From: Eledone cirrhosa
Taxonomy: Eukaryota
NCBI GenBank assembly: GCA_964016885.1
Contig: OZ024742.1
Span: forward strand, 368,218,001 to 368,282,000
DNA: 64,000 nucleotides
Reading direction: 5' to 3'
The translations under genes and the position numbers were made by a program. Shown here piece after piece: positions 11,510 through 58,556 of this stretch. The notes below the pieces were generated by a model. The model did no database searches. It was not told where the DNA came from and saw only the letters and a list, made by a program, of their open reading frames with translations. Within the stretch, counting starts at the first letter, position 1, and every line of letters starts with the position of its first letter.

Positions 11510-11547
<38 letters not shown>

Positions 11548-16372: not shown

Positions 16373-16920
16373 TAGAACAATGAAAACAAAATAAAAGTTA
16401 GAAATAAATAGTTAATTAGTTCGTTGTTTTACGATAGATTCAGAGGGTCACGTGTTCGTGGCAGATCGACATATCGACGATCATAGTAGTGATTACGTTA
16501 TTATCTATTTCTAGTCTCAAAAGTCCTGTCCTTCAGAAACACTATATCTATATTATAAAGCTGACGGCCATATGTATGTAACAAACCTTTCGCCAAATGG
16601 CTGAACCAAACAACACAAATTTGCACCATAGATGTAACTTTTTCCAAGTAAGAGAGTGAGGGTATTTTTCTCTACTAAATTTAGTTAAAAGATTAAAGAT
16701 ATTTTATTGTTTATTTAAATATTCACTTCTTTAAAATTTTCCAATATCAACACTTTCGGTTATACAAAATTCCTCTCTCTTTCTTACTCTGCCTTTTTAG
16801 ATAGATACATAACTATAACGTCGCGCCCTTATAATATCTCTCTCTCTGGCTGCCTGTCTGCATTGACTTCTAACCAACTTTTAATTAATTATATATATAT
16901 ATATATATTCGTCTACATAT

Positions 16921-19900
16921 TTTCAACAGTAATACTGTACTATACTATATATTTTCAACAGTAATACTATACTATATATTTTCAACAGTAATACTATACT
17001 ATATATTTTCAACAGTAATACTATACTATATATTTTCAACATTAATACTATACTATATATGTTCAACAGTAATACTGTACTATATATTTTCAACAGTAAT
17101 ACTATACTATATATTTTCAACAGTAATACTGTACTATATATTTTCAACAGTAATACTGTACTATATATTTTCAACAGTAATACTATACTATATATGTTCA
17201 ACAGTAATACTATACTATATATGTTCAACAGTAATACTATACTATATATTTTCAACAGTAATACTGTACTATATATTTTCAACAGTAATACTATACTATA
17301 TATTTTCAACAGTAATACTATACTATATATTTTCAACAGTAATACTATACTATATATTTTCAACAGTAATACTATACTATATATTTTCAACAGTAATACT
17401 ATACTATATATTTTTAACAGTAATACTGTACTATATATTTTCAACAGTAATACTATACTATATATTTTCAACAGTAATACTATACTATATATTTTCAACA
17501 GTAATACTATACTATATATTTTCAACAGTAATACTATACTATATATGTTCAACAGTAATACTATACTATATATTTTCAACAGTAATACTATACTATATAT
17601 GTTCAACAGTAATACTATACTATATATTTTCAACAGTAATACTGTACTATATATTTTCAACAGTAATACTATACTATATATTTTCAACAGTAATACTATA
17701 CTATATATTTTCAACAGTAATACTATACTATATATTTTCAACAGTAATACTATACTATATATTTTCAACAGTAATACTATACTATATATTTTCAACAGTA
17801 ATACTATACTATATATTTTTAACAGTAATACTGTACTATATATTTTCAACAGTAATACTATACTATATATTTTCAACAGTAATACTATACTATATATTTT
17901 CAACAGTAATACTATACTATATATTTTCAACAGTAATACTGTACTATATATTTTCAACAGTAATACTGTACTATATATTTTCAACAGTAATACTGTACTA
18001 TATATTTTCAACAGTAATACTGTACTATATATTTTCAACAGTAATACTGTACTATATATTTTCAACAGTAATACTATACTATATATGTTCAACAGTAATA
18101 CTATACTATATATGTTCAACAGTAATACTATACTATATATTTTCAACAGTAATACTATACTATATATTTTCAACAGTAATATTATACTATATATTTTCAA
18201 CAGTAATACTATACTATATATTTTCAACAGTAATACTATACTATACTATATATTTACAACAGTAATACTATACTATATATTTTCAACAGTAATACTATAC
18301 TATATATTTTCAACAGTAATACTGTACTATATATTTTCAACAGTAATATTATACTATATATTTTCAACAGTAATACTATACTATACTATATATTTACAAC
18401 AGTAATACTATACTATATATTTTCAACAGTAATACTATACTATATATTTTCAACAGTAATACTATACTATATATTTTCAACAGTAATATTATACTATATA
18501 TTTTCAACAGTAATACTATACTATACTATATATTTACAACAGTAATACTATACTATATATTTTCAACAGTAATACTGTACTATATATTTTCAACAGTAAT
18601 ACTATACTATATATTTTCAACAGTAATACTATACTATATATTTTCAACAGTAATACTGTACTATATATTTTCAACAGTAATACTATACTATATATTTTCA
18701 ACAGTAATACTATACTATATATTTTCAACAGTAATACTGTACTATATATTTTCAACAGTAATACTATACTATATATTTTCAACAGTAATACTATACTATA
18801 TATTTTCAACAGTAATACTATACTATATATTTTCAACAGTAATACTATACTATATATTTTCAACAGTAATACTGTACTATATATTTTCAACAGTAATACT
18901 ATACTATATATTTTCAACAGTAATACTATACTATATATTTTCAACAGTAATACTATACTTTATATTTTCAACAGTAATACTATACTATATATTTTCAACA
19001 GTAATACTATACTATATATTTACAACAGTAATACTATACTATATATTTTCAACAGTAATACTATACTATATATTTTCAACAGTAATACTATACTATATAT
19101 TTTCAACAGTAATACTGTACTATATATTTTCAACAGTAATACTGTACTATATATTTACAACAGTAATACTATACTATATATTTTCAACAGTAATACTATA
19201 CTATATATTTTCAACAGTAATACTGTACTATATATTTACAACAGTAATACTATACTATATATTTTCAACAGTAATACTATACTATATATTTTCAACAGTA
19301 ATACTGTACTATATATTTACAACAGTAATACTATACTATATATTTTCAACAGTAATACTATACTATATATTTTCAACAGTAATACTGTACTATATATTTA
19401 CAACAGTAATACTATACTATATATTTTCAACAGTAATACTGTACTATATATTTTCAACAGTAATACTATACTATATATTTTCAACAGTAATACTATACTA
19501 TACTATATATTTTCAACAGTAATGCTATACTATATATGTTCAACAGTAATACTATACTATATATTTTCAACAGTAATACTATACTATATATTTTCAACAG
19601 TAATACTATACTATATATTTACAACAGTAATACTATACTATATATTTTCAACAGTAATACTATACTATATATTTTCAACAGTAATACTGTAATATATATT
19701 TTCAACAGTAATACTATACTATATATTTTCAACAGTAATACTATACTATATATTTTCAACAGTATTACTATACTATATATTTTCAACAGTAATACTATAC
19801 TATATATTTTCAACAGTAATACTGTACTATATATTTTCAACAGTAATACTGTACTATATATTTTCAACAGTAATACTATACTATATATTTACAACAGTAA

Positions 19901-22278
19901 TACTATACTATATATTTACAACAGTAATACTATACTATATATTTACAACAGTAATACTATACTATATATTTTCAACAGTAATACTGTACTATATATTTAC
20001 AACAGTAATACTGTACTATACATTTTCAACAGTAATACTATACTATATATTTTCAACAGTAATACTATACTATATATTTTCAACATTAATACTGTACTAT
20101 ATATGTTCAACAGTAATACTATACTATATCTGTTCAACAGTAATACTATACTATATATTTTCAACAGTAATACTGTACTATATATTTTCAACAGTAATAC
20201 TATACTATATATTTTCAACAGTAATATTATACAATATATTTTCAACAGTAATACTGTACTATATATTTTCAACAGTAAAACTGTACTATATATTTTCAAC
20301 AGTAATACTGTACTATATATTTTCAACAGTAATACTGTACTATATATGTTCAACATTAATACTATACTATATATGTTCAACAGTAATACTATACTATATA
20401 TGTTCAACAATAATACTATACTATATATTTTCAACAGTAATACTGTACTATATATTTTCAACAGTAATACTATACTATATATTTTCAACAGTAATACTAT
20501 ACTGTATATTTTCAACAGTAATACTGTACTATATATTTGCAACAGTAATACTATACTATATATTTTCAACAGTAATACTGTACTATATATTTTCAACAGT
20601 AATACTATACTATATATTTTCAACAGTAATACTATACTATATATTTTCAACAGTAATACTATACTATATATTTTCAACAGTAATACTATACTATATATTT
20701 TCAACAGTAATACTGTACTATATATTTGCAACAGTAATACTATACTATATATTTTCAACAGTAATACTGTACTATATATTTTCAACAGTAATACTGTACT
20801 ATATATTTTCAACAGTAATACTATACTATATATTTTCAACAGTAATACTATACTATATATTTTCAACAGTAATACTGTACTATATATGTTCAACAGTAAT
20901 ACTATACTATATATTTTCAACAGTAATACTATACTATATATTTTCAACAGTAATACTATACTATACTATATATTTTCAACAGTAATACTATACTATATAT
21001 TTTCAACAGTAATACTGTACTATATATTTTCAACAGTAATACTGTACTATCTATTTTCAACAGTAATACTATACTATATATTTTCAACAGTAATACTATA
21101 CTATACTATATATTTTCAACAGTAATACTATACTATACTATATATTTTCAACAGTAATACTGTACTATATATTTTCAACAGTAATACTATACTATATATT
21201 TTCAACAGTAATACTGTACTATCTATTTTCAACAGTAATACTATACTATATATTTTCAACAGTAATACTATACTATACTATATATTTTCAACAGTAATAC
21301 TGTACTATATATGTTCAACAGTAATACTATATTATATATTTTCAACAGTAATACTATACTATATATTTTCAACAGTAATACTGTACTATATATTTTCAAC
21401 AGTAATACTATACTATATATTTTCAACAGTAATACTGTACTATCTATTTTCAACAGTAATACTATACTATATATTTTCAACAGTAATACTATACTATACT
21501 ATATATTTTCAACAGTAATACTATACTATACTATATATTTTCAACAGTAATACTGTACTATATATTTTCAACAGTAATACTATACTATATATTTTCAACA
21601 GTAATACTATACTATACTATATATTTTCAACAGTAATACTGTACTATATATGTTCAACAGTAATACTATACTATATATTTTCAACAGTAATACTATACTA
21701 TATATTTTCAACAGTAATACTGTACTATATATTTTCAACAGTAATACTATACTATATATTTTCAAAGGTAATACTGTACTATCTATTTTCAACAGTAATA
21801 CTATACTATATATGTTCAACAGTAATACTATACTATACTATATATTTTCAACAGTAATACTATACTATACTATATGTTTTCAACAGTAATACTATACTAT
21901 ACTATATATGTTCAACAGTAATACTATACTATACTATATATTTTCAACAGTAATACTATACTATACTATATATTTTCAACAGTAATACTATACTATACTA
22001 TATATGTTCAACAGTAATACTATACTATACTATATATTTTCAACAGTAATACTATACTATACTATATATTTTCAACAGTAATACTATACTATACTATATA
22101 TGTTCAACAGTAATACTATACTATACTATATATGTTCAACAGTAATACTATACTATACTATATATTTTCAACAGTAATACTATACTATACTATATATTTT
22201 CAAAAGTAATATTGTACTATATATGTTCAACAGTAATACTATACTATATATTTACAACAGTAATACTGTACTATATAT
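16921..22278. repeat. 27-bp AT-rich satellite (TTTTCAACAGTAATACTATACTATATA)n, roughly 195 copies
   Basis: The 27-bp period gives the 9-aa periodic ORFs IFNSNTILY/KIYSIVLLL. Variants of 32 bp with an extra CTATA are concentrated near the right end. Confidence 0.97.
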
Positions 22279-27486: not shown

Positions 27487-30400
27487 CTACAGAACAATGT
27501 AGAGAGAAGGCCCATTTACACGGGCCATTCTCGCTTCTTTCACCCACCTTTCATAAAACTGTCTGGGGCCAAGCACTTCTCTCTCCATCCTGATCCTTCT
27601 TCCGAAGTGGTATCGGAAGAAGTAAACCAGGTGATGGCCGGAGAGAAAGTCACCCGACCTCAGACCTTTCAGGCGCGTCCACCACACAACCTCTTTCATC
27701 ATGGCTATTACGCACAGAAAGACCGCCTCTGCTTCATTTCTGAAGGGAGGAGGCGGCTTGATGTTCACCACAGACTCGGCGGTTAATCGAATCGGCGCCA
27801 CACGCGACAGCAGTCGTTCGACGTAGCCCCACAGATCGGCAACGCCCGGGCAGTGTGCCAGTGCGTGCGCAACGGTTTCCTCGTCGCGCACGCATCTGGG
27901 ACAGATCTTTTTCGCGGGATCCCTGCCCAGGCGCCCGTGTCTGTAGAGCTTTTCTCGAACGGGCAGAGCCCCCCGGTAACACTGCCAGGCTAGGGACCTC
28001 TGGAAGTTGTCCATGGGTCCCGGGTCGAAAGTTCTACCGAACAGGCTGGCCAGTTCGTCCTCCTCCATGCCTAGCGACTCTCCAAGGGTGTCGTCGACCT
28101 TGCTAGCCACCAACCCTCTATAGAATGTCGAGGTGGATTCTCCACTGATAGTCGGGTCCGCTTGCCAGATAGCCGTGAGCGCCTGGGCACACTCGGTGTG
28201 CCAGTTGCCCAGTTTTCTCGGTCTTTGCTTCACCCAGGATTGCAGTTCGGTGAGCGAGACGAGCTGTGGGAAGGCTCGCCTCACAAACGGGACCCACACC
28301 GGCTGACCGTTGAGGAATACCTGTAGATGCCGTAGCCTCAATGCGTGCCTACGCATCAACAGCCACGGCATACCCAGCCCTCCTTTCGAAGGGTGCTGGC
28401 AGCAGATGGATCTCCTCACCATGGGAGGCCGCTTCTTCCAGAGGAACTGGAAGAGCATGCGTTCCATGATGGTGAGCTTTTCCTTGGGGCAAGGCACGAC
28501 GGTCAGGCGGTAGTAGATGACGGACGCTATGTAAGCGTTCGTCACCTCCGCCAGACCTTTCAGTGATAGTTTGCACTTGGCCCACTTCTGGGTCAGCGCA
28601 AACACCCTGCTCGTCACCTCGCCCCAATTCTTCTCCACCTGGAGGTCCGGTCCGAACCAGACCCCGAGCAGCTTCACCGGGCCCTCCGTCCACCGCCCGA
28701 TGACACCGTCTAACGGCATCGGTTTGCCCCTCCACGTTCCGAGTTGCAAACCTACTGACTTGTTCTGGTTCATCCTATCCACCGTCAGCCTTTCGTATTC
28801 CTCCAGTAGGGTGGCGATCGCCCCGATTTCCGAGGCGTCCGCCACCATTACTGTTACGTCGTCGGCATAGGCCGAGACCGCTTTGTGCAATCCCGGTTCC
28901 AGGGGTATGCCCCGCAGCAACTCCAACTTCCGCAGCAGTGGCTCGAGAGTCAATACGTACAGAAGGGAGGAGAGGGGGCACCCCTGTCTGATGGACCGGG
29001 TGATTTGAAACGGCTCCGAGAGGTAGCCGTTTACTTTAATCCTAGAGTAGATGTTGCCACTGTGCATGGCAGAAATCCAGCCCCTGAAAACGGGTCCGAA
29101 GCCCGCCGCCGCTAGCACCGCATCCAGGTAACCATGGTCGACCCTATCGAACGCCTTAGATTGATCCAAGTTGATCAGGGCACCACCAAAGCCGGGTTCG
29201 TTGCCAACCCTCTCTATGATGTATCGCATGAGGTGGAGGTTGTCGTGAATGGACCTGGACGGGATAGCGCATGTCTGCGCGTCTCCCACCAAACCACCCA
29301 CCACAAGCGCCAACCTCTTCGCCAACACCTTGGCCAAAATCTGTAACTCTGCATTCAGCAGAGTTATGGGCCTAAAGTTACTTAAGTCGTCCCCCTTGCT
29401 CTCATCCTTCCTCACTAGCGTGACCACGCCCTTGGTCACAGAACAGGGAATTCTCCCGTTCTGTTGCCAGTTGCAATAGACAGCCTCGAGGAGTTCGGAG
29501 AACAAGACCGGCATAGCTAAATAAAGTTCGTATGGTAGACCATCGAGACCCGGAGATTTACGTCTGCTGCATTGGCTGAGCGCTTCCCCGATTTCAGTGG
29601 CTGTGATTGGCCTTTCGCAGCACTCCGCTTCGCCGCTCGAAAGACGCGGTAGACCGTCGAGGTATGGACCGAAGTCCACATCCCCGTCCGGCCCCCCGCC
29701 CCCTCCGAACAGTCGAGCAAAGTGCCTTTGAAAGGCCTCGCACATCCGCTCAGGTTCAAGGATCACCCGTCCATCCTGGTCTCGCAAAGACCGAATGGTG
29801 GATTTAATCCCACTCTTGGCTTCTGTCACGCGGGCCCAGCTAACAGCTTTGGTCACCTCGTTTCCTAAAGCACGTATTTTACTTCGGACAACGCAGCCTT
29901 CGTGCTTCGCGTCAAAGAACTGGCTCAACGCCGTTCTCGCCGCTAACACTCTGGCTACGTCTCCGCTCCTAATCGCCTCTTCTAGTTTATCTGTTAACTC
30001 CCTTTCCTTCCTATTTCTATTCGCCGCTAGTTCCTTACTGTAACCTATCGAACTTACTCTAATCTCTCTCTTTAGAGATACCCACCACCTACTGTTGACG
30101 ATCGCTCCCGTCAACCGCATCTTAACTAAGCTACTAATCTGGTTCCTGTAATCTTTCTTTGCCGGCAAGGACAAGTTCATCTTCCAGTAACTGGGACCCT
30201 GTCTATACGTTCTATCAAGGTTGACCACGCAGGTCACTAATTTGTGATCTGAATAGCCAACCATGATCAATTCTGGACAACTAAATACGTCCCTATCCTT
30301 ACTCCTAACCAAAAACCTATCTAGGTACGATCTAGATTGTCCACTGCGGTTTGCCCAGGTCCAGGTTGGCGCAGTTGGACAATCTAGTCGAAATCTATCG

Positions 30401-30925: not shown

Positions 30926-32754
30926 TTTTGGTGTTGAAAGTGAAGAAAGAAAAGCACCTACCTCTCCGGGTTGTGTAATTTCCATGGCATCAGGTGTGTT
31001 GGGTGGAGGGATGTTTTGTGGTGGTGTGGGGGTACCCGTGTGTGGTGGGGTTGGGGTATTTGGAGTTGTGCCAGGGAGAGGGGCGGTTATGGGGAAATCT
31101 TTCAAGAGGACGCGATTTAACGGTTTTAAACAGGGGGGGGGGGGCTCACGTCCCGTCTAAATTGTTCTTTTAAGGAACGATAAAGGTCCAGAGGGACCTT
31201 TATCATTTTTAAATGGGTGAAGTTCTCTGTTGAGAAAAAGTTTGGCCCTTCGGTCTGCACCATAGGGTTATTGTTTATTAATTTAACCAGTTTTTTGTTT
31301 TCTTTATTTATATATGTGTATTGCAACGTCTTTTTTTGTGATGCTGTCAATGTTTCGGAGAGGGGAGGCGCAGATTTATTTTTGTTTGTTGAGGGTGGGG
31401 TGTTTTTGATTGGAGTTGGTGTTTGTGTGTGGGTTATTTGTGGTGTGCTGGGTGTGTGTTTTCTTTTTTTTTTTTTAACTTGTCTGAAGGCTTCTCCTTC
31501 TTCTTCAGAAGTTGGGGGAAACTCTTCAGCGCTAGGTGGGAGGGACGTGTTGTGTGGTTGTTTTTTTTGCGGGAGGGGTAGATTTGTTACTGTTTTTTTA
31601 TTATTTGTTTGGAATGGGTTTTGTGGTGGTGATGGTAATGTTTGTGTCGTGCTTGTGGTTGGTGATGGTGGTGGTGATGTTTGTGTTGTGGTTGGTGGTG
31701 GTGATTTTTGTGTCGTGCTTGTGTTTGGTGCTGGTGGTGGTGATGTTTGTGTTGTGTTTGTGGTTGGTGGTGTCTGTATTTTGTTTGCTGTGTGTGGTAT
31801 TAGTGTATTTTTGGAGGTGGGTGGTGTTGGTGTACTGTTTTTGGTGGGTGTGGGCAATAGTCCTTTTTGGGGGATACGTTTCGGGCAGTTAGCCTTAACG
31901 TGTCCCCTTTCCATGCATAAATAGCATGCTGGTCTTCTCCCCTCTACAATTATGTCTATTGGGGTAAGGTCATCCAGCCAGATGCGATCCGGGATTTGTG
32001 CTATTCTTTCGGGCCTCATTTGGACTAGTATGTCGAGGCCCATTCCCAGGAACGCATCTCCAGTTGCCTGCCCCATTGACAGCATTGTGTCTTCGCCCAT
32101 GTCTATGAAGCCAGCAATAGCCCACCAGAAGTCCATTGTGGGCAGCATTGTTTTTACTTTTACTCTCTGTGTTCTTCTACCCATGTAGGAGGGATAGAAG
32201 CTGTATGTTGTCGATGAGAGTGGGCTTAGGGAAAGCTTCTCCGCCGTTTCCTTGTCTTTTGTTAGGACCGAAATGCTGCCATAGAGTCGGTCCTTTCGTA
32301 TGAAGAGAATATTCTTCATATAGTCTTTTAGGACCAACTCTATTTCCATTTGGCTGGGCTGTGCTGGCTGTCTTGTCTGGTTCAGTATAGTTCTGAAGAG
32401 AACTGTGCTCTCTGTTCTGGCTTTCTTGAATTCTGGGGGTGAGTTAATGGAAAACATTCCGTTCTCCCCCAAGACTATTTGTTTTTTTGCTTCGGCCAGT
32501 TTTTCTCTGGCGGCAGTTAAGTCAATTGGTGTGTATATTATGGATTGTTTTGTTTTCTGGGCGAAAGTTGCCCTGTTGTTATTTGTATTATTTTCTGTTT
32601 GTTTGTTTTCCGTTTGCTCATTTTCCTTAACATTTGTTTTTTCATTTTCCTTGTTTGTTTCGTTGTCTAATTTTGTTGTAATTATTTTTTGTTCTTCAGA
32701 CTTGGGGGGCGTGGCAGAGCTAATGGCAGACATGTCTGCCATCTTTTCCGCCAT
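30923..32754 (-). pseudogene. ORF1 of copy C (gag-like, CX2CX4HX4C; frameshift at G-run ~31135)
   Basis: CYLCMERGHVKANC. Homologous to copy D ORF1, and the C-terminus continues in ORF 30923-31105. Confidence 0.85.
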
Positions 32755-33226
32755 GCTGCCAAGAAAGAAATTTTTCGGCAAAAAAATAGATATTTATTTT
32801 ACCCCCTAAAAAGGGGGTAAATGCAAAAATGTTTCCCTAAATAACAGGGGTTAGTGTTCCAAATGTGTTGCACTGAAAAATTTATCCGGTACTTACTATA
32901 GTGAGGGTAAATCCTGATGGAATAACGGAGCCGATGTGAAGCGTGTCTTACTCTATCAAGATAGGTTTCTTTTATTTGCCACTAGGGCATCAAAAGTGGG
33001 ACAAGTACAAAGGGGGAGTTTACACAAAAAGGCGTCCTCAATAAGGAGGAGGCAATAACAAAATATAAAAATAAAATAAGATATAACAAAAAATAAAATT
33101 TTTAACAAAATCCTCAATAGAGAGGAGGCGCCTTGGGGGGTCGCACACACCCCCGAAAAAAGTGTGCAACCCTTCTCCTCAGGAGCACAGAGAAGGGGTG
33201 CTCCCTTGGTCTTTCATCTTCCTCAC

Positions 33227-36200
33227 CTATAGTCTGATGTAGAGTGAAGGCCCATTCACACGGGCCATTCTCGCCACTTTCACCCATCTTTCATAGAAAC
33301 GGCTGGGGTGCAGCACCTCTCTCTCCATCCTGATCCTTCTTCCGAAATGATAACGGAAGAAACGGACCAGTTGTTGGCCAGAGAGAAAGGTGCCTGACCT
33401 CAGTCCTTTCAGACGCGTCCACCATACAACCTCTTTCGCCATGGCTATTACGCACAGAAACACCGCCTCTGCTTCATCTTTGAAGGGGGGAGGCGGCTTG
33501 ATCATTACAATAGACTCGGTGGTCAACCGGATCGGTCCCACCCTTGACAGCAGTTGTTCGACATAGCCCCACAGATCGGCTACGCCCGAGCAGTGTACCA
33601 ATGCGTGTGCAACGGTTTCCTCGTCGCACACGCATCTGGGACAGATCTTTTTGGCGGGGTCCCTACCCGGGCGCCCGTGTCTGTAGAGCCTTTCTCGAAC
33701 GGGTAAAGCCCCTCGGTAGCACTGCCAGGCCAGGGACTTCTGGAAGTTGTCCATAGGTCCCGGGCTGAATGTCCTACCGAACAGGCTGGCCAGTTCGTCC
33801 TCCTCCATGTCTAGGGCTTCTCCGAGGGCGTCGTCGCACCTGCTGCGTACCAGCCCTCTATAGAATGTTGCGGTGGAGTCTCCACTGATAACCGGATCCG
33901 CCTGCCAGAGGGCGGTGAGCGCCTGGGCACACTCATTGTGCCAGGCGCCCAGTTTTCTCGGTCTTTGCTTGACCCAGGATTGCAGCTCGGTGAGTGAGAC
34001 GAGTCTGGGAAAGGTTCGTCTCACAAACGAGGCCCACACCGGTTGTCCGGTGAGGAATACGTAGAGGTGCCGTAGCCTTAATGCGTGTTTACGCATCATT
34101 AGCCACGGCATCCCCAGCCCTCCTTTCGAAGGGTGTTGACAGCAGATGGATCTCCTCACCATAGGAGCCCGCCTCTTCCAAAGGAATTGGAAGAGCGCGC
34201 GCTCCATCTTGGTGAGGGTTTCCCTTGGGCAGGGCACTACGGTCAGGCGGTAGTAGATGACGGACGCTATGTAGGTGTTCGCCACCTCCGCCCGACCTTT
34301 CAGGGATAGTTTGCAACTGGCCCACTTCTGGGTCAGTGCAAACACCCTGTTCGTAACCTCCGCCCAGTTTTTCTCCACCTGGAGGTCCGGTCCGAACCAG
34401 ACCCCGAGCAACTTCACCGGGCCCTCCGTCCAGCGTCCGACGACGCCATCGGAGGGCATCGGTCTGCCCCTCCACGTGCCGAGTTGCAAACCGATCGACT
34501 TGTCCCGGTTCAGCTTAGCCCCTGTGAAATTTTCGTACTCCTCCAGTAAGGTGCCGACCGCCTCGATTTCGGAGGCCGTCGACACCATTACTGTCACGTC
34601 ATCGGCGTAGGCCGACACCGCTTTCCGCAATCCCGGTTCCAAAGGGATGCCCTGCAACAACTCCAACTTCCGCAGTAGTGGCTCGAGAGTCAACACATAC
34701 AGAAGGGAGGAGAGAGGGCACCCTTGTCGGATGGACCGCGCGATTTTGAACGGCTCCGAGAGGTAGCCGTTCACCTTGACCCTAGAGCAGATGCGGCTGC
34801 TGTGCATAGCAGTGATCCAGCCCCTGAAAACGGGTCCGAAGCCTGCCGCCGCTAGCACCGCATCCAGGTAACCATGGTCGACCCTATCGAACGCCTTAGA
34901 TTGATCCAAGTTGATCAGAGCCCCACCAAAGCCGGGTTCGTTCCCAACCCTCTCTATGATGTATCGCATGAGGTGGAGGTTGTCATGGATGGACCTGGAC
35001 GGGATAGCGCATGTCTGCGCATCTCCCACCAGGTTGCCCACGATAAGCGCCAACCTCTTTGCTAGCACCTTGGCCAAAATCTGTAACTCTGTATTTAGCA
35101 GAGTTATGGGCCTGAAGTTACTTATTTCGTCCCCCTTGTTCTCGTCCTTCCTCACTAGCGTGACTACGCCCTTGGTCACAGTACAGGGAATTCTCCCGTT
35201 CTGTTGCCAGTTGCAGTAGACCGCCTCGAGGAGATCGGGGAACAAGTCCGGCATAGCTAGATATAATTCGTAAGGAAGACCATCGAGACCCGGGGATTTG
35301 CGTTTGCCGCATTGGCTCAGCACGTCCTCTATCTCAGCGGCCGAAATCGGCTCCTCGCAGGACTTCGCCTCCCTGTCCGAGAGGCGCGGCAGGCCGTCGA
35401 GGTATGGACCGAAGTCCACGTTCCCAACCGGCTCCCCGCCCTTCCCGAACAGTCGGGCAAAGTGCCTTTGAAAGGCGTCACACATCTGCTTAGGCTCAAG
35501 AATCGCCCGTCCATCCAGGTCTCGCAAAGACCGGATGGTGGATTTAGTTCCACTGTTGGCCTCTGTCACGCGGGCCCAGCTAACAGCTTTGGTCCCCTCG
35601 TTCCCTAGAGCACGTATTTTACTTCGGACAACGCAGCCTTCGTGCTTCGCGTCAAAAAACTGGCTCAAAGCCGTTCTCGACGCTAGCACTCTGGCCACGT
35701 CGCCGCTTCTAATTGCCTCTTCTACTCTATCTATTAGCTCCCTTTCCTTCCTATTCCTATCCGCAGCTAGAACCTTACTAAATTCTATCGAGACTACTCT
35801 AATCTCTCTCTTTAGAGATACCCACCACCTGCTGTTGACGATCGCTCCAGTCAACCGTTCCTTAACTAACGTACTAATCCGATTCCTGTAGGCTCTACTT
35901 GCCGGCAAGGACAAGTTGAGCTTCCAGTAACCGGGGCCCTGTCTATGAGTTCTGTCAAGGTTGACCATGCAGGTCACTAATTTGTGGTCTGAATAGCCAA
36001 CCATGCGCATTTTTGGACAACTTAAAAAGTCCTTATCCTTAATTCTAACTAAGAACCTATCTAGGTACGACCTAGATGATCCGCTACGATTTGCCCAAGT
36101 CCAGGTTGGCGCAGTCGGAAAATCTAGTCGATATCTATCGGCCAGGTCAAATCGACCGATTAACCCTTTGAGGCTATTACACCCCTCTCTATCGGGGCAG

Positions 36201-36664
36201 GCCCCTACGTAGTCCCAGCGTGCATCTAGGATACCATTCCAGTCCCCCACTAATAGCAAGGAGCGGGACGTCCCTAGAAAAGTCTCCAGACGATGGAAGA
36301 AGTCCGGCCGCATTGACCCGAAAGGGCCGTAGGCGGCTACCAACCTAAACGCTCCGCCTTTACTACTGCCAAGGTCCAGAACCACTAGTCGACCCTCCGG
36401 GTCCAAATGTACCATCTGTGTTGCGAGACCCAGATGTTTTTGCAGCAGAACGACAACTCCACCCCCACCTCCGGGCTGACAGAGAGATGCGTGCATCTCA
36501 AAGTCATCAAAGGTGGGGGCCAGCTGTCGCACGTTGCTGATCCGGGCCTCGCAAATAACCATCACATCTATACGTTGTGACCTGAGGTCATTTAGAAGCA
36601 TTGCTTGCTTCCAAGTTGAGCCCAGGCCACGCGCATTTAAACAGCCTACTCTTAGCATAGCCAT
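33227..36664 (-). CDS. ORF2 of copy D: AP-endonuclease + reverse transcriptase + C-terminal CCHC zinc finger (~1145 aa)
   Basis: ATG at 36664 (MAMLRVGCLNARGL). EN motifs GDWN, YLDRF and SDH; RT motifs LDQSKAFDRV, QGCPLS and YADD; zinc finger CPRCVCDEETVAHALVHC. Confidence 0.95.
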   Translation of the reverse strand: MAMLRVGCLNARGLGSTWKQAMLLNDLRSQRIDVMVICEARISNVRQLAPTFDDFEMHASLCQPGGGGGVVVLLQKHLGLATQMVHLDPEGRLVVLDLGSSKGGAFRLVAAYGPFGSMRPDFFHRLETFLGTSRSLLLVGDWNGILDARWDYVGACPDREGCNSLKGLIGRFDLADRYRLDFPTAPTWTWANRSGSSRSYLDRFLVRIKDKDFLSCPKMRMVGYSDHKLVTCMVNLDRTHRQGPGYWKLNLSLPASRAYRNRISTLVKERLTGAIVNSRWWVSLKREIRVVSIEFSKVLAADRNRKERELIDRVEEAIRSGDVARVLASRTALSQFFDAKHEGCVVRSKIRALGNEGTKAVSWARVTEANSGTKSTIRSLRDLDGRAILEPKQMCDAFQRHFARLFGKGGEPVGNVDFGPYLDGLPRLSDREAKSCEEPISAAEIEDVLSQCGKRKSPGLDGLPYELYLAMPDLFPDLLEAVYCNWQQNGRIPCTVTKGVVTLVRKDENKGDEISNFRPITLLNTELQILAKVLAKRLALIVGNLVGDAQTCAIPSRSIHDNLHLMRYIIERVGNEPGFGGALINLDQSKAFDRVDHGYLDAVLAAAGFGPVFRGWITAMHSSRICSRVKVNGYLSEPFKIARSIRQGCPLSSLLYVLTLEPLLRKLELLQGIPLEPGLRKAVSAYADDVTVMVSTASEIEAVGTLLEEYENFTGAKLNRDKSIGLQLGTWRGRPMPSDGVVGRWTEGPVKLLGVWFGPDLQVEKNWAEVTNRVFALTQKWASCKLSLKGRAEVANTYIASVIYYRLTVVPCPRETLTKMERALFQFLWKRRAPMVRRSICCQHPSKGGLGMPWLMMRKHALRLRHLYVFLTGQPVWASFVRRTFPRLVSLTELQSWVKQRPRKLGAWHNECAQALTALWQADPVISGDSTATFYRGLVRSRCDDALGEALDMEEDELASLFGRTFSPGPMDNFQKSLAWQCYRGALPVRERLYRHGRPGRDPAKKICPRCVCDEETVAHALVHCSGVADLWGYVEQLLSRVGPIRLTTESIVMIKPPPPFKDEAEAVFLCVIAMAKEVVWWTRLKGLRSGTFLSGQQLVRFFRYHFGRRIRMEREVLHPSRFYERWVKVARMARVNGPSLYIRL

Positions 36665-36688
36665 GTTGGTGGTGAAGAGAAAAGGCAC

Positions 36689-38479
36689 TTACCTCTCTGC
36701 GTCCCGGGTATCGGGCTGCACAATTTCCATTAGGGTGGGGGATGGGTTGTTGGGTGGGGTGGTGGTTTGTGGAAGTGTGGGGGCATCAGTGTGTTGTGTG
36801 GTTGGGGAGCTTGGAGTTGTGTGGGTGTTTGGGGAGGGGGTGGGATAGTTTTTTAGGAGGACGCGGTTAATGGGCCCGACGCAGGGGGGACCCACGTCCT
36901 CTTTAAAATTGTTTTTTAAAGTTTTATAGGTGTCCTGTGGGGCCTTAATCATTTTGAGGTGGGGGAAATCCCCTGCCTGGGTGAAGTTAGGCCCTTGTGT
37001 TTTTATTAGATTGTTGTTGTACACAATGTTTAACAGTTTTTTGTTTCTTGTATTTATGTATGTGTATGCATGTTTTTGTTTTTGTGTGGTGTTTTTTGTT
37101 TGCTGTTGTTGTGAGCTCTTTTGTGTTGGTGTCAGTGTTATGTTTTGGGGAGGGTTTTTTTTCATTTGTGTGTCTGAGGTGTGTTTTCTTTTTTTTCTTT
37201 TGATTGTGTGGAAGTGCTCCTCCTCGTCTGACGACGAACTAGGGTCATCTTCCGCGTTGGAGGGGAGGGGTATATTTTCGGGTTGTGTTTGCGGTACGGG
37301 TGTTTTGGAAATTGTTTTTGTTTTTTGAGTGGAGGGGATGGGTTGGACATTGTTTTGTTTTGGTTTGAGCTGTGGTGGTTGTTTTTGTAGTGGTAGTTGT
37401 GGTGATTGTGTTGGTTGTGCAGTTGTTGGTGGTGTAGGCAGGATTGGGGTTTTCTTATTAAGTTGGGGACAGACAGCCCTCAGGTGACCTCTGGTTCCGC
37501 AGAGGTAACACGAGGGCCGTCTACCCTCAACGGTAATGTTGATGAAGGTTAGATCATCCAGTATGACGCGTTCAGGGATCTGGGCGATCCTTTCGGGCCT
37601 CATTTGAACTACAAGTTCGAGGCTCGTTCCACTGAACGCGTCACCCGATGCCTTTCCCATGGACACCAGCATGTCATCCTCCAGGTCCAGAAAACCTGTC
37701 AAAACCCACCATATGTCCATAATCGGCAGGATGGTGTGGATTTTTATTTTTTGTGTTCTTCTACCCATGTACGTAGGGTAGAAGGTGTATGCGGTGGATG
37801 TGATTGGTTTGATGGACAGTTTCACTGCTGTGTCCCTGTCCTTCATGAGAATGGATAGACTCCCGTAGAGTCTATCCTTCTGAATGAAGGTGATGTCCTT
37901 CATGACGTCTTTTAAAACCAGCTCTATCTCGCTCTGTGATGGTTGAGCTGGTTTTTTACTTTTGTTCGAGATTGTCCTAAACATGACCGTGTTTAGGAGT
38001 CTCTGGCTTTTTAGTTCCGGGGGGGAATGGATTGTGAATGAACCATTTTCCCCGTACACTATATATTTTTTCGCATCCGCCAGTAGCTCCTTCGCTTTTG
38101 TTATATCTACTGGCAGATAGTCGAGGGTTTTCCTTGTCGTCTCGGCGAAGGAGAAATTTTGTTTGTTTGTGTTGTTGTTGTCGTTGGTGGTGTTGTTGTT
38201 ATCATTGTTGTTGTTGTCACCGTTATTGGTCTTGTTGTTGTTATTGTTATTGTTATTGGTGTTGTTTTCGTCCGTCGCATTGTTGTTGTTGTTGCTGTTG
38301 CTGCTGGTTCTTTGGGTTGTTGCCATGGCAACGTCAAGTTGTCGGTTAACAGGTGGAGAGAATTCTTCCTCTGGCTGACCTATCTTCTTGACCTCTGCTA
38401 CTGTGACAGTGGCAGGGGGAAGCTGTAAGTTCATCTTCCCCTTTCCTCCTTCGAATTTTGGTGAAGAAGCTTCGGCCAT
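36689..38479 (-). CDS. ORF1 of copy D: nucleic-acid-binding gag-like protein (596 aa)
   Basis: CYLCGTRGHLRAVC zinc knuckle, Asn-rich and Pro/Thr/Gln-rich low-complexity tracts, and a basic KRKKRK patch. Sits directly upstream of ORF2. Confidence 0.92.
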   Translation of the reverse strand: MAEASSPKFEGGKGKMNLQLPPATVTVAEVKKIGQPEEEFSPPVNRQLDVAMATTQRTSSNSNNNNNATDENNTNNNNNNNNKTNNGDNNNNDNNNTTNDNNNTNKQNFSFAETTRKTLDYLPVDITKAKELLADAKKYIVYGENGSFTIHSPPELKSQRLLNTVMFRTISNKSKKPAQPSQSEIELVLKDVMKDITFIQKDRLYGSLSILMKDRDTAVKLSIKPITSTAYTFYPTYMGRRTQKIKIHTILPIMDIWWVLTGFLDLEDDMLVSMGKASGDAFSGTSLELVVQMRPERIAQIPERVILDDLTFINITVEGRRPSCYLCGTRGHLRAVCPQLNKKTPILPTPPTTAQPTQSPQLPLQKQPPQLKPKQNNVQPIPSTQKTKTISKTPVPQTQPENIPLPSNAEDDPSSSSDEEEHFHTIKRKKRKHTSDTQMKKNPPQNITLTPTQKSSQQQQTKNTTQKQKHAYTYINTRNKKLLNIVYNNNLIKTQGPNFTQAGDFPHLKMIKAPQDTYKTLKNNFKEDVGPPCVGPINRVLLKNYPTPSPNTHTTPSSPTTQHTDAPTLPQTTTPPNNPSPTLMEIVQPDTRDAER

Positions 38480-38718
38480 TTAAAAAAATATTGACTTTTC
38501 AACAAGAAAAAACTTTTTTTAACTATTTCGCCTAAAGGCGTAGAATATTTTGAGAGACTGACCAGATCAAAGTTTGACCTGGCAGTCCCTCTACAAAATG
38601 GTACAAAAATTAAAGTTATCAGACAAGAATTTCTATAGAAATTTAAACAGAACTTACTCAGCAAGTTATACGCGTGTGTCCATCCCAAAATAGATGATAG
38701 ATAGATAGATAGATAGAT

Positions 38719-41700
38719 TTCTTTATTTGCTACAAGGGCGCACAAGAAAAGAGACAAATACAAAGACACATGCCTGGAATTTTACATACAGTCGTGTAAA
38801 AAAAAATATAAAACAAACAATTATAATAATCGAAATCCCCAATAGGGGGGCAACGCCACAAATGGGTTGTTTAATACCCCGTCGATAGAACAACCCTCAA
38901 CTTCAGGAGCGTGTTGTTCAAATGCTCTTTTCTTTCTTTTGCTCGCTTCTTTAACCTACAGGCTTATATACAGAGAAGGCCCAATCACTCGGGCCATTTT
39001 TGCCATATTCACCCACCTTTCAGTAAATTTACTGGGGTGCAGTGCCTCTCTCTCCACTCTGATTCTTCTTCGAAAGTGATACTTAAAGAAGGGAATCTAT
39101 TGTTGTCCGGAGAGAAAGGCATCTGTCCTCAGTCTTCTCAATCTCGTCCACCATATAACCTCTTTCACCATAGCCACCGTACAGAGGAAAACCGCCTCTC
39201 TTTCGTTTTTGAAAAAGGCTGGCGGTTTGATCGTTATTATGGACTTGGCAGTCAACTGGATGTGTCCCATACGCGACAGCAGTTGTTCTGCATAGTTCCA
39301 CAGGTCAGTTACGCCCGGGCAGTGTACAATTGCGTGCAGGACTGTTTCAATGTCCTGCGCGCATCTTGGACACGTCCTCTTGGAAGGATCCCTGCCGGGG
39401 CGTCCGTGCCTGTAGATCTTGTCACGAACCGGTAGAGCTCCTTGGTAGCACTGCCAGGCCAGGGACCTCTGGAAGTTGTCCATAGGTCCCGGGCTGAAGG
39501 TCCTACCAAACAGACTGGTGAGTTCATCGTCGTCGGCGCCCAGAGTCTCTCCGAGCACGTCGTCGCCCTTGTAACGTACAATCCCTCTATAGAATGTCGA
39601 AGTGGAGTTTCCAGAGGAGTGTGAGTGCCTGAGCGCATTCAATGTGCCAGGCGCCCATCGTTTTCGGTCTTTTCTTGACCCAGGACTGCAGCTACGTCAG
39701 CGAGACGAGTTGTGCCCACACCGGTTAGGGGTCGGTGAGGAATACCTGGAGATGCCGCAGCCTCAGCGCATGTTTGCGCATCATCAGCCACGGCATTCCC
39801 AGCCCTCCGCTGGAAGGGTGCTGTCAGCAGACGTGTCTCCTCACCAGCGGAGCCTGCTTCTTCCACAAAAACTGGAAGAGCATGCGTTCCATCTTGGCGA
39901 GATGTTCACGGGGACAAGGCACGACAGTCAAGCGGTAGTAGATGACGGACGCTATGAAAGTGTTCGCCACCTCCGCTCGACCTTTCAAGGAGAGTTTGCA
40001 CTCTGCCCACTTCTGGGTGAGTGCAAACACCTTGGCCGTCACCTCGTTCCAGTTTTTCTCCACCTGGAGGTCTGGACCGAACCAGACCGCGAGCAATTTC
40101 ACCAGTCCGTCCGTCCGTCCAGCGTCCAACGACGCTGTCGGACGTCATCGGTTTGCCTCTCCAGGTACCGAGTTGCAAACCGACAGACTTGTCTGGGTTT
40201 AGTTTTGCTCTCGTCAGCGTTTCGTATTCTTTCAGTAAGTTGCCGATCACCCCGATTTCCGAGGTGCTCGACACCATTACCGTCACGTCCTCGGCATAGG
40301 CCGACGCCGCTTTTTACAGTCCCGGTTCTAGAGGGATGTCCTGCAACAGCTCCAATTTCCGCAGTAGTGGCTCTAGAGTCAATACATACAGAATGGAGGA
40401 GAGAGAGGGCACCCCTGTCGAATGGAACGCGTGATTGCGAACGGCTCCGATAGGTAGCCGTTCACCTTGACTGCCGAGCAGATGCTGGTGTGCATCGCCT
40501 CGATCCAGCCTCTGAAAACGGGACCGAAATCGGCCGCCTTGAGAATTGCTTCCAAGTATCGATGGTCGACCCTATCGAATGCCTTAGACTGATCCAAATT
40601 GATCAGAGCCCCACCGAAGCCGGGTTTAATACCCACCCTTTCTATGATGTATCGCATGTGGTGGAGGTTGTCGTGTATGGACCTTGTCGGGATTGCACAC
40701 GTTTGCGCTTTCCCTACCAGGTTATCGACGTCAAGCGCCAACCTCGTCGCTAGCACCTTGACCAAAATCTTTTACTCTGTGTTGAGCAGGGTTATGGGCC
40801 TGAAGTTGTTAATTTCGTCCTCCTTGTTCTCGTCTTTCCTAATCAGCGTTACTACGCCCTTGCCTGCAGAACTAGGAATTCTCCCGTTCTGCTGCCAATT
40901 GCAGTAGACGGCTTCGAGGACGCCAGAGAACAAGTCCGGCATGCCTATGTAAAACTCATAGGATAGACCATCTAGACCGGGTGACTTGCATTTCCCGCAG
41001 CGGCCCAGAGCGCCCCGTATCTCACTGTCCGTGATCGGTCTTTCGCAGAACTCGGCGTCCGTGTTCGAGAGACGCGGCAGGCCGTCGAGGTATGAACTAA
41101 AGTCCATTGCCCGGTTCGGCTCACCGTCGTTCTGCTCAAACAGTCGCGCAAAGTGCTGCTGAAAGGCTGCGCACATTTGCTTGGGGTCAAGTAGCACGCG
41201 TCCGTTTTGGTCTTTCATAGACCGAATCGTGGACTTGTTGCCACTTTTTGCCTCCGCCACTCGGGCCCAGCTGACAGCTTTCGCTCCTTCGTTTCCTAGA
41301 GCACGTGTTTTGCTTCTGACCATGCAGCCTTCGTGATTCGCATCGAAGAACTGGTCCAGTGCCGTTCTCGACGCTAACACTCTAGCCGCGTTGCCACTTC
41401 TAAGTGCCTCCTCTGCCTTGGCTACTAGTTCTCTTTCTATTTTGTTTTTCTCTAAGGCTAACTCTCTGCTAAACCCTATCGATTCTATTCTAATTGCATT
41501 CTTGAGAGAGTACCACCATTTATTGTTGACGATGGTTCCCGTTAGCTGTTGCTTGACTAGTCTACTTATCCGTTCAATGTAAGCTTTACGTGCCTGCAAC
41601 GACACGTTCAGCTTCCAGTATCCGGGTCCTTGTCTTGTATTCTATCACGGTTGACTAAGCAGACGACTAATTTGTGATCTGAATAGGCAACCAAATGCAT

Positions 41701-44500
41701 TCGTGGACAGCTTAACATCTCCTTGTCCCTTTCTCTAATGAAGAACCTATCTAAATACGATCTAGATGTCCAGCTGCGGTTTACCCACGTCCACTGTGGT
41801 GCAGTCGGGAAATCCAGTCGATACCTATCGGCCAGTTGGAATTGGCCGATTAAAGTTTTGAGGCTGTTGCACCCCGCTCTACTGGGACATGCTCCCACAT
41901 AGTCCCATCGTGCATCTAGGATACCATTCCAGTCCCCCACTAAAAGTAAGGAACGAGACGTTCCCAGAAAAGACTCTAGACGCTTAAAGAAGTCTGGCCG
42001 TGATTGCGATTGCCCGGTCGGGGCATAAACGGCCACCAGTCTGAAGGCTCCACCTCCAATACTGTTCACGTCTAGGACTACCAGTCTACCCTCCGGGTCC
42101 AAGAGTACTTGTTGTACTTCGACGTCCAGGTTCTTCCGAAAGATGACAGCCACTCCACCTCCACCCCCTGGCTGACAGAGAGATTCGTAGATCTCAAAGT
42201 CGTCGAAGATGGGGGTTAGTTGCTACCTGTTGTGGATCCTGGACTCGGTGATGGCTAGCACATCCATACGGTGTGACCTAAGGTCGTTTAAAAGTTGGCC
42301 CTATTTCCAGGGCATCCCTAGGCCACGCACATTTACGGTTCCAACTCGTAAACTAGCCATGTTGGTGAAGAAGAGTTGAAGAAAAAGGACGAAAGGTGCA
42401 CTTACCTTTTCGTTTCCTGGGGATCGTGTGGTTCAATCTCCATTTGGGTGCTGGATGGGGTGTTGGGTTGGGTGGGGAAACATTTTAACAGGACGCGGTT
42501 GATGGGTTTTTGGCAGGGGTTGCCCACGTCCTGTGAACATTTATTTTTCAGGTCATTATAGGTTTCCATAGAAACCCTTATAAGTTTAAGGTGTGGAGAC
42601 GGTTCTGCCTTGACGAAAGTTTTGCCCTCCGTCTCCACCTTGGGGTTTTGGGAGATGACCTCCATCAAACTCTTGTTGTTTGTGTTGATGTATGCGTATT
42701 GTTGTTTGTGTTTTTGTTGTGTTGTTTTAGTTTGTTGTTCGTCCGGGAGTTTTCTTTTTATGGTGGGTGCTTGTGTTTGGGGTGGTGTTGGTGTTGGTTT
42801 TGCTGGTAGGGGGATGTTTGACTGTGATGTTGTTTGTGTTTTTGTTTGTGTCTGTGGTTGTGTGTTGGTGTTGGTGATTGGAGTTTTGGGGGTTTTGTGG
42901 TGTCTCTTTTTTTGTTTTTTTTAGATTTCCGCGGCTCTCTCTCTTCTTCACTTAAAGAAGGAGAAGCAGCCTCATCTGTCGATGAATAATCATCGTCAGG
43001 AGTGTGGGGTAGGGGTGTGTTGTGTGGTGGTAGTGTTTCGGTGTGTGTGTTTGTGGTAGTGTTTGATGGAGTGGGATGGGGTGGGGTAGTGTTCTTCAGG
43101 GGTGTTGTCTCTGTTTTTTCTGTTGTTGTTGGTTGAGTGGCTGTTTGTTTTGGTGTGGTTGCTCGTTTCGTCTGTTGTTGTAATTGTGGTGCTGGTGGTT
43201 GTTTTGGTGTTGGTAATACTGTTTTTTAATGATGTTGTTGTGATGTGTTTGTGAAGGACAGGGGGCTTTTAGGTGTACTGTGCTACCACAGCGAAAGCAA
43301 TTAAATTTTCGTCCTTCTACCGAAATATTTATTTTGTTGTTGTCGTCGATGACGACTTTTTCGGGTATTTTGGAGATTCTCTCCGGCCTCATTTGCAACA
43401 GAATCTCCAAATCAGTACCCGCCCACCTTTGTCGAATAGAGTTTCGTATTGAAAGAATCATATCAGTTTCTGGCTCTACGAAGCCAGCCAAGATCCACCA
43501 GATGTTAATGTTTGGTGGTATATTTTTAATTTTTATTTTTTGTATCCTTTTTCCCATGTATGTAGGGAAAAAGGTGAATGCTTTTGACACCATTAGTGTC
43601 ACAGAATGTTTTGGGACGAGTGCCTTGCTTTTAAACAGTACGGAAACGCTTCCGTACGGAAACACTTTCGATATTTGCTAGAATTTCCTTCAGGGTATCT
43701 TCTATATCTCCTTCACTAACAAATATCGGCTTTCTCGTGATATTGGATACAGTACTAAAGGTCACTGTCCTCCGAACTGTGTCTTCTTTTATTTCGAGGG
43801 GTGAGTTAATTCTAAACCCACCCTTGTCTTCGAAAGTTACAAATTTTCTTCTTTGCTGGAGCATATCTCTTGCATTGGAGATGTCAAGATTTATAAAATC
43901 TTGTTTTTTGTTCACTGTTTCAGCAAAATACATTTTTTTTGTGTGGTGTTGCTGTTGTTGTTGTTGTTGTTTTTCTTGTCGCTGTTAGCCTCGGTGTTGG
44001 AAATGTCAGTTCCTTGACGAGGTGAAACATTATGTGTAGATGTATCTGTGGAGTTGTTGATGTTGTTTTTTTTCATGTGTATGTATATTAATGGGTTTAA
44101 TTCCTGTGATTTCATTTTTCTCCGCTTCCACGGTAGAAATTGTACAATTTTCATGTGGTAATATTTTTTCCCTTTTGTTGACAGTCGTATCTATGGCGAC
44201 GTCTATAGTAGCAGAAGCAGATATAACGTTAATATCTGCTTCTTTACCTCTCTTTTCTCTGTCGACGTTCTCTAGCGTTCTTTTCGTGTTATTCATGTTT
44301 TATAGTTGGCAAAATTTGATATTTTAAAATAATTTTTAAATTAAATTTTCGCCCCTAAAGGGGAGAAAAATGGGATTACCACCCAGCTGACAATTCAACT
44401 TGGGGGTTAATCTACAAAATAATATGTTTTTTCAAACAAATTGTTCTGTTTTTCGTATATAAATTTAAAGAAAATCTTACCGGCGATGTTCCACGCGTCA
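38719..44500 (-). mobile_element. Tx1-clade copy E, full length but decayed (divergent family)
   Basis: ORF2 fragments 38956-42360 (EN, RT, zf) and ORF1 fragments 42402-44296 (CFRCGSTVHLKAPC), with many frameshifts. GATA tracts on both sides. Confidence 0.92.
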
Positions 44501-53135: not shown

Positions 53136-53983
53136 GGGCTCACATACATTCTCTGTGCGTGATTTGGCTCAGCTCAGCCAATCAGCGCCAGTAGAAGAGG
53201 ATGTATCCCTACGCGTTCGGAGGGAGAAATAGCCCGCAAAGATTTGAGGACGCTATCACTTCCAGGCTAGACCGTGTTAGGGTAAACAACACTTGTTCTT
53301 TTGCTCCGTAAGCACAAACAATATGTAACGGCAAAACATTACCTACGAGCCTGACCAAACGTATTTTCTCTTGTAATCTTAATTGAATTATTTCATTATT
53401 CTTGGCATGCCAGCTTAATTCACTTCTTAACCTTTATTAATAAATAATGTAAAAAGAAGCTAAAATTCGTTGTCGATATTCCTATCGTATCTTTCTACCA
53501 AACCTGGTTCCTCGTGGCAACAACACAACAACTCTCTAAATATTCTTCTCCGCTAAATTCGAATTTATACCTAAACCAAATTGGTGACAATATATCTACA
53601 CCAAATGTGTGACCCTCGACGATTAAGTATGAAAACGCAGCCTATTTGAATTCGCCAGTCGTTTTAACGGAAATGTGGAGTGGCTTAACATTTGGAATAT
53701 TCGAATCGGGTTTCTAGACTCGCTTAGCGTAAGTCCATAAAATTCATAATATTCCATTTGTTGAAGCACGCGACCTACACAATATTTCTGTTATAACTTT
53801 CATGGTAACACAAGTAACTCACGCATACAGACGAACACAAAAATACTACACAAAAGAAAGAGTTTTTTCGACGTCTAACAAAAAGTTTCTCTTTTGGATT
53901 GAAAATTATTATTGCGAGCATAGTTTGATAAAAACAAAAAAAAAAAGAATTAAAAAAAAAAGAATTTCTCTGGATATAGAATT

Positions 53984-58546: not shown

Positions 58547-58556
58547 TGCAGTTGAG

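Follow-up and report, generated by a model that had tools for sequence, protein, structure and literature searches.

A conserved 5′ splice-site motif at the ORF1 end of Eledone cirrhosa LINEs and the possible removal of ORF2 as an intron

We analyzed a 64,000-nt window of the Eledone cirrhosa genome and found it to hold head-to-tail L1/Tx1-like LINEs within (TATC)n. The intact element D (32965..38690; this and all features below lie on the minus strand) has TATC at both flanks and is the only full-length copy in the window with both ORFs unbroken, copies C and E carrying frameshifts. Its ORF1 (36689..38479) encodes 596 aa with a CX2CX4HX4C knuckle and has homologues in octopods; the knuckle residues C324, C327, H332 and C337 were invariant among the seven ORF1s compared. 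The Atlas neighbours of ORF1 were zf-CCHC (0.92), and the Pfam profile search returned no match for ORF1 of D itself. A pyrimidine-rich spacer (36665..36686) ends at the ATG of ORF2 (33227..36664), which encodes an endonuclease–reverse transcriptase–zinc finger protein of 1145 aa with the Pfam domains Exo_endo_phos, RVT_1 and zf-RVT (the last under its curated cut-off). The 3′ UTR starts with a purine-rich segment (33197..33226; 23/30 purines, TGA at +2), and an AATAAA poly(A) signal (32971..32976) marks the 3′ end of the element.

The N-terminal apurinic-type endonuclease, reverse transcriptase and C-terminal zinc finger of ORF2, together with a separate ORF1 containing an RRM/CCHC-type nucleic-acid-binding region, place the element in the L1/Tx1 clade, and the TATC on both flanks of the window copies agrees with the target preference of the Tx1 subclade; families I, J, K and T have TTA as their target. 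A quick tree, from which family T was excluded as too short and in which the relatives included no named Tx1 element, joined the LINE families and P0001 into one group with a support of 100. The organization resembles that of Kibi, in (TC)n, and Koshi, in (TTC)n, two-ORF endonuclease–reverse transcriptase elements of the Tx1 clade that form tandem arrays in simple repeats (PMC4494074), but the present elements target (TATC)n and (TTA)n; the available text of that account mentions no splice signals. A first metagenome scan and a viral scan turned up no relatives. All 40 scored genome matches of element D were 100% identical over 301 nt, and the family is very abundant, with thousands of copies, and active.

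The first-pass annotation had described 5′ splice sites at the ORF1 ends of the three full-length copies, and we found each of them in place: AG|GTAAGT at 36692-36687 in D and at 42405-42400 in E, and AG|GTAGGT at 30961-30956 in C. With the preceding base, the motif reads GAG|GTAAGT in D (36687..36695), where it is in phase 2 and overlaps the TAA stop, GAG|GTAGGT in C (30956..30964), where it is in phase 0 and lies inside ORF1, and AAG|GTAAGT in E (42400..42408). We compared 13 families of the same genome, with ORF2s 65-90% identical, and the motif was kept in all of them. At position –2, A was present in 12/13 families, and G at –1, G at +1 and T at +2 were each present in 13/13; at +3 and +4 all families had a purine, at +5 G was found in 12/13 and at +6 T in 13/13. 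The conservation dropped to 5/13 at –3 and 8/13 at +7, and as a background, only 15 of 111 four-fold sites were invariant. The donor was in phase 2 in nine families, with a TAA, TAG or TGA stop within it, in phase 0 in two and in phase 1 in two. As the motif occurs in three ORF1 phases and varies only within the 5′ splice consensus, its conservation is not accounted for by a stop codon. It was the best or joint-best match among the 151-358 GT sites in 12 of the 13 family copies and was present in 155 of 160 junction records, the control windows giving 0 and 5.

These patterns support selection on the donor at the nucleotide level across the 13 families and three phases, as expected of the AG|GTRAGT 5′ site of a major-class intron, and the ORF1-end motif is very probably a selected U1 site. 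Beyond this genome, donor conservation is represented by two protein ends only: the ORF1s of octopods in the database end in DQGK and EGKS and resemble the phase-1 families, a hint at the protein level. Many families were predicted to fold a hairpin that conceals the donor, though no more strongly than expected from base content (mean z –0.95; combined p=0.09).

The acceptor is less uniform. It had earlier been placed on the ORF2 stop codon, which in D is the TAG at 33227..33229 and gives a predicted intron of 3466 nt (36692-33227). All eight ORF2 ends cited for this do read TAG|GT, but they are not independent: three belong to family D (33227, 44821 and 46480), two to one other family (24874 and 47414), and the one at 49013 is a stub. 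Across the families, the TAG was present in 12/13; it is not universal, family T having TAA while retaining the donor CG|GTAAGT, and the tracts of the outgroups are weak. Nor did the conservation of the TAG exceed chance when compared with synonymous positions, as the third-base A/G was also kept in 19 of 43 invariant Lys/Glu/Gln columns. In six of the eight cited ends another AG lies 7 nt upstream, between the tract and the TAG. In D this first AG is a CAG (33234..33236, last base 33234), a probable alternative acceptor that would reuse the ORF2 stop in the ORF1 frame; in E an AAG lies at –7 from the TAG|GT (38956..38980). Family C ends in an unbroken pyrimidine tract and TAG (27487..27510), the top-scoring AG of its ORF2. 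Among some 265 AGs, the terminal one was top-ranked, at 1st-4th, in seven of the eight TATC-clade families; D was the exception, at rank 18, and in Ia, Ib, J and K the rank was 16th-60th. Over all 13 families, the 3′ site of pyrimidine tract and YAG was weak or absent in six. The last ORF2 codons also contain a conserved 7-bp hairpin directly before the pyrimidine tract (33249..33266). Its covariation is suggestive only, with 91% pairing and equally high values in 29 of 500 shuffles, and a constraint on RNA structure could account for the conservation of the ORF2 end.

We studied the reading frame across the predicted junctions. When the donor was joined to the first AG past the tract, ORF1 met a stop within three codons in 13/13 families (permutation p~0.001), and in 7/7 when counted by lineage (p=0.0095; background 10%); the first-AG rule was adopted after exceptions had been seen in the data, and the full count requires AAG acceptors in G and E and GAG acceptors in K and T. 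Such AAG and GAG acceptors are rare in animals. Joining the donor at the ORF2 TAG gave a phase-matched early stop in 8/12 families (p=0.02), and 27-100 extra residues in the other 4/12. The frame comparisons thus support a donor phase that fits an immediate stop past an acceptor at the ORF2 end.

We consider it somewhat likely, with a probability of roughly 0.55, that the LINEs use the ORF1-end donor to splice ORF2 out of part of their transcripts. Splicing from this donor to an AG in the last ORF2 codons would remove the 3.46-kb ORF2 from some transcripts and yield a short mRNA that encodes ORF1 alone and keeps the normal 3′ UTR. The spliced mRNA would supply most of the ORF1 protein, and the unspliced RNA would supply the ORF2 protein and serve as the template. 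Read-through or an ORF1–ORF2 fusion was rejected, there being no common frame.

A further donor-like GTAAGT lies in the 5′ UTR of D, some 40 nt in from the 5′ end (38652..38657), with similar motifs in other families, and defines a candidate intron of 67 nt (38591..38657) ending in TTTTGTAG. It probably makes the predicted spliced mRNA a three-exon one in some families. That such a three-exon ORF1 mRNA is conserved throughout the clade of active octopod LINEs, with all of ORF2 an intron and the donor phase and downstream stop co-evolving, we regard as an even bet. All 396 genomic sequences that matched exactly at this donor still contained the candidate 5′ UTR intron, giving 0 spliced retrocopies vs. 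396 unspliced; in human L1, spliced genomic copies amount to ~2% (PMC5860796). An RNA spliced in the 5′ UTR could move in cis.

Products of the ORF2-removing splice were sought in several data sets. Among 15 of 95 contig joints listed from four runs over 32980-38150, none of the runs being on record as RNA, no join linked 33226 or 33233 to 36693. ORF1 contigs were deeper than ORF2 contigs in one small run, which is likewise not recorded as RNA; as the depth of contigs is no guide to the relative abundance of segments within a gene, neither this difference nor the lack of a join is counted as evidence here. Database searches gave no transcript-derived ORF1 proteins with spliced C-termini, and the three near-full-length homologues from the ORF1 protein search were uninformative on this end.

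The proposed spliced RNA would have the structure of HAL1 (half-L1), that is, ORF1 and the 3′ UTR without ORF2, and the first-pass annotation had expected it to spawn half-L1-like copies. Exact-motif searches of the genome found no ORF2-less copy among 1,547 D-type copies and none for the H or E/G motifs; copies precisely lacking the intron, of the HAL1 or SpIRE kind, are thus missing from these searches and the half-L1 prediction fails. The accompanying claim, that the unspliced RNA is the transposition template, held, as the genomic copies derive from unspliced RNA. All eight D-type copies with an altered +3 base continue into the spacer and ORF2. An ORF2-less RNA would escape retroposition because the ORF2 protein works in cis. 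Internal deletions were rejected as splice products: none of 19 junction calls was GT-AG, and several were borders of tandem copies.

A rather unlikely alternative is that U1 snRNP binds the donors but splicing seldom follows, the ORF2-end motif being a stop codon in a structured 3′ tail; U1 near the 5′ end and the ORF2 start would then aid transcription, block early polyadenylation or help to export the intronless 5.7-kb RNA. This would fit the lack of spliced retrocopies at either donor, the donor kept without a TAG in family T, and the donor-like motif near the 5′ end in most families with a recovered 5′ end, often without a clear acceptor. In EVD, a copia element, U1 prevents premature termination (PMC5580714), and the human L1 5′ UTR has a conserved, mostly unused donor (PMC5860796). 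There is little to suppress in ORF2, however, with 0-2 AATAAA per family and neither AATAAA nor ATTAAA in D, and U1 binding by itself predicts neither phase-matched stops nor top-ranked acceptors in seven of the eight TATC-clade families.

It is improbable that the donor splices elsewhere, either to an AG before or inside the ORF2 start, giving an ORF1–ORF2 fusion or, from the 5′ UTR donor, an ORF2-only mRNA such as human L1 makes (PMC2896524), or to an exon of the host or of a tandem copy further downstream. Every family has a pyrimidine-rich spacer, which in G, Ia, Ib, J and K ends in a YAG ahead of the ATG, but in 8/13 families the spacer contains no AG, and where one exists the intron would be ~30-47 nt with an inconsistent frame; RNAs keeping ORF2 should also retropose, yet the eight altered D-type copies run on unspliced. 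Least probable is a translation signal, for termination–reinitiation or ORF2 read-through, or an inherited coincidence resembling a splice site: in the 12 families with an ATG, the distance from the motif to the ORF2 start is always 25-52 nt, and all families share common ancestry, but it is kept regardless of the stop position and the ORF1–ORF2 frame, its conservation stops exactly at the edges of the U1-pairing window, its variants GTAAGT, GTAGGT and GTGAGT are those permitted by the splice consensus, and the donor hairpin lacks support beyond base composition.

The ORF2-removing splice has its closest functional parallel in Ty1/copia elements, whose gag-only spliced mRNAs include shGAG of Arabidopsis EVD and that of Drosophila copia, with a ~3-kb intron (PMC5580714). 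There, the structural gene ends in an internal donor that yields an mRNA for the structural protein only, the unspliced RNA is both enzyme mRNA and template, and U1 has a dual role (PMC5580714); here the splice is only predicted. The Ty1/copia elements carry LTRs and one gag-pol ORF whose stop is created by splicing, and EVD additionally terminates early (PMC5580714), whereas the present elements are non-LTR, have two ORFs and an ORF1 with its own stop; the shGAG system is a works-like analogue only. Human L1 is also a LINE with a conserved 5′ UTR donor and mostly unspliced RNA, but its splices (SpIREs, SpORF2) begin in the 5′ UTR and remove promoter or ORF1 sequence (PMC5860796, PMC2896524), and the products are described as dead ends (PMC5860796). 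The present elements differ in the additional donor at the ORF1 end, the predicted removal of ORF2 and the lack of spliced copies in our searches.

LINEs are thought to translate their two proteins from a single bicistronic RNA, and L1 splicing has been described as harmful to the element. If the ORF2-removing splice is real, a splice site under selection for producing a separate ORF1 mRNA would represent a second, convergent answer to the excess of ORF1 over ORF2. It would be the LINE equivalent of gag-only splicing in copia, setting the ORF1 message apart from the transposition template. It would bear on the workings of cis-preference and of the surveillance of intronless RNA. Even without any splice, the presence in a LINE of two conserved U1 sites calls for explanation; with it, an active family of thousands of copies would be controlled by the host spliceosome, possibly tissue by tissue.

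The first-pass annotation proposed that ORF2 of the LINE copies in the window is a removable ~3.5-kb intron, bounded by a 5' splice donor at the ORF1 end and an acceptor AG at the ORF2 stop. Every donor and acceptor motif that it cited was found in place, although copies C and E proved to be frameshifted. We compared one natural copy from each of 13 related families of the same genome (picked by eye from sequence clusters, with family T making up the 13), whose ORF2 regions are 65–90% identical. In columns anchored on the GT, position –2 is A in 12/13 families, –1 G, +1 G and +2 T are each found in 13/13, +3 is A in 12 and G in one, +4 is A in nine and G in four, +5 is G in 12/13 and +6 is T in 13/13, with conservation decaying beyond. 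These columns coincide with the part of the 5' splice consensus that pairs with U1. Among four-fold sites of ORF2, by comparison, only 15 of 111 columns are invariant (12 families; K omitted for a large deletion). The donor lies in phase 2 in nine families, with TAA, TAG or TGA as the stop, in phase 0 in C and Ia, and in phase 1 in Ib and J; for F, G, J and L230, whose copies are broken upstream, the phase was partly assigned by homology. The three phases and differing stops indicate that the motif is independent of the stop codon.

An unanchored scan of the 63 nt upstream of ORF2 recovered a donor match of at least 7/9 for 155 of the 160 records, compared with 0 and 5 for the control windows; the record set contains duplicates, is dominated by D and was in part retrieved via motifs adjoining the donor. 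All five exceptions are single copies that have degenerated, and one of these was counted twice; 18 of 20 cluster representatives reached the same score. Distant L1-like elements on metagenome contigs lack the pattern (6/29 reach 7/9 in a 100-nt window, 0/29 reach 8). The cited observation therefore holds, and it widens to a donor motif that is clade-wide and selected. Separately, at 30926-30924 (minus strand) the position of the ORF2 ATG of other families is occupied by ATA in family C (L071, L095, L097, L108), and the overlapping TAG is the ORF1 stop in C's shifted frame; this family would use a non-AUG ORF2 start or depend on other families.

The evidence that the ORF2-end acceptor exceeds chance is less clear than that for the donor. 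The eight ORF2 ends do read TAG/GT (slash, splice position), but they represent about five families, and six have an extra AG 7 nt before the TAG. The stop is TAG in 12/13 families, which is no clearer than at synonymous A/G sites, as 19 of 43 invariant Lys/Glu/Gln columns share the same A/G base at the third position in 11/12 families or more. TAG/GT occurs at 1/42 closed ORF2 ends of the distant metagenome elements. Family T ends in CTG TAA in 18 of 20 fetched loci, those with the end displayed, and in the 17 loci with the junction displayed its donor is CG/GTAAGT, except for one copy with AG/GTAAGT. By a crude pyrimidine-plus-YAG score over about 265 AGs, the terminal AG ranks 1st–4th in L228, C, F, H, L230, G and E, 18th in D, and 16th–60th in Ia, Ib, J and K. 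Part of the conservation could be due to RNA structure, since this region contains a conserved hairpin and, possibly, a CC-loop-GG mini-hairpin spanning the stop.

Joining the donor to the TAG brings an ORF1 stop within three codons, each family in its own phase, in 8/12 families (permutation p=0.02); the exceptions, L228, G, E and K, all have an earlier AG. With the first AG after the hairpin, such a stop follows in 13/13 families (permutation mean 8.6, p about 0.001) and in 7/7 collapsed lineages (p=0.0095), under a rule chosen post hoc, once the exceptions were known, and among families sharing ancestry; the background rate at the remaining ORF2 AGs is 10%. The earlier AG is missing from the phase-0 and phase-1 families, whose stops lie in the matching 3' UTR frame. 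The rule requires AAG or GAG acceptors, which are rare, in four families. This pairing is suggestive of the donor and ORF2-end AG belonging together.

The copies lie head-to-tail on the minus strand at 22–49 kb, with TATC repeats between them, in an assembly of 3.0 Gb. Copy D (about 38690-32965, minus) is an intact LINE with ORF1 at 38479-36689 (596 aa) and ORF2 at 36664-33227 (1145 aa; endonuclease, RT and zinc-finger domains). The CCHC knuckle is invariant in ORF1. Octopus sinensis, O. bimaculoides and Argonauta hians are the sources of its named database homologues, which makes an octopod host probable; another homologue, P0158 (603 aa, on a 2,209-nt contig), has the C-terminal DQGK of family J. 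The D family is young, as the 40 best-scored genome matches are 100% identical across 301 nt and a 14-mer from its ORF1 end has 1,547 occurrences, its reversed control 2. Judged on targeting, the class fits Tx1-clade Kibi and Koshi, likewise described as targeting microsatellites (PMC4494074). Insertion in (TTA)n instead of (TATC)n, together with a separate branch on the ORF2 tree, sets families I, J, K and T apart (L219, L221, L222, L212, L258) and suggests a target change. Elsewhere, G000:C1:423365314-423418069 holds ~10 successive copies at 5.84-kb spacing, ORF2 being open in several, and record L191 (minus strand, near 2062) has an ORF2 end that gives way, after only a few bases, to mid-ORF1 sequence of family I, probably through deletion between tandem copies. 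A long CA-rich simple-repeat tract and a 32-bp AT-rich minisatellite lie at 600-11600 and 16900-22275; the minisatellite truncates the last LINE copy at 22276. The Helitron-like element at 53954-60537 (plus) carries Rep and Pif1-type helicase fragments.

Half-L1-like copies, also predicted by the first-pass annotation, did not appear among exact-motif matches to D, H and E/G, a search that mutated copies escape. The genome search found 0 D copies in which the 3' UTR directly follows the ORF1 end, and the 8 of 1,547 D-type ends with a non-A base at +3 all run on into spacer and ORF2. Of the four candidates for H (not counted genome-wide), one was an ordinary copy and the others were three sites without relation to it; the three for E/G were all unrelated, with no ORF2-less copy. 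As cis-preference is described, ORF2-less RNA is unable to move in cis (PMC5860796), so this absence argues only mildly against splicing, yet it removes the half-L1 prediction.

We give a probability of roughly 0.55 to the leading reading, in which some of the RNA undergoes a splice joining the ORF1-end donor with an AG within the final ORF2 codons. The product would be an ORF1-only mRNA with a stop immediately after the join and the usual poly(A) signal, while unspliced RNA would yield the ORF2 protein and serve as the copied template. ORF2 as a predicted intron is plausible and partly supported, by the selected donor and the suggestive stop phase. The main rival, that U1 binds the donors without splicing, is rather unlikely, though it comes next. 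Splicing to other acceptors fits worse and is improbable. A translation signal or coincidence, set against three donor phases and differing stops, also fits worse and is slightly less probable again.

Full-text searches of open-access papers returned no LINE with a conserved ORF2-removing intron; nor did they return these octopod families, which subscription papers or Repbase may catalogue. The closest precedent for the proposed mRNA is the gag-only spliced mRNA reported for copia/EVD (PMC5580714), whereas human L1 is described as splicing in the opposite sense, removing promoter or ORF1 sequence (PMC5860796, PMC2896524).

A feature that the first-pass annotation did not list is a second donor-like motif, seen by eye ~20–65 nt from the 5' end in most families in which that end was recovered (L212, L218, L219, L228, L229 and L231); an acceptor-like TGTAG follows 35–70 nt further on in D, E, F, G and K. 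The short intron-like segment at 38657-38591 (minus strand; similar site at 32896, also minus) ends in this TGTAG, with a hairpin next. For D, 396 copies read on through the segment, the exon-side motif being followed by G, and 0 are spliced; one further match is unrelated. Either both splices are coupled, setting the mRNA pool apart from the template pool, or the donors mostly bind U1 without splicing.
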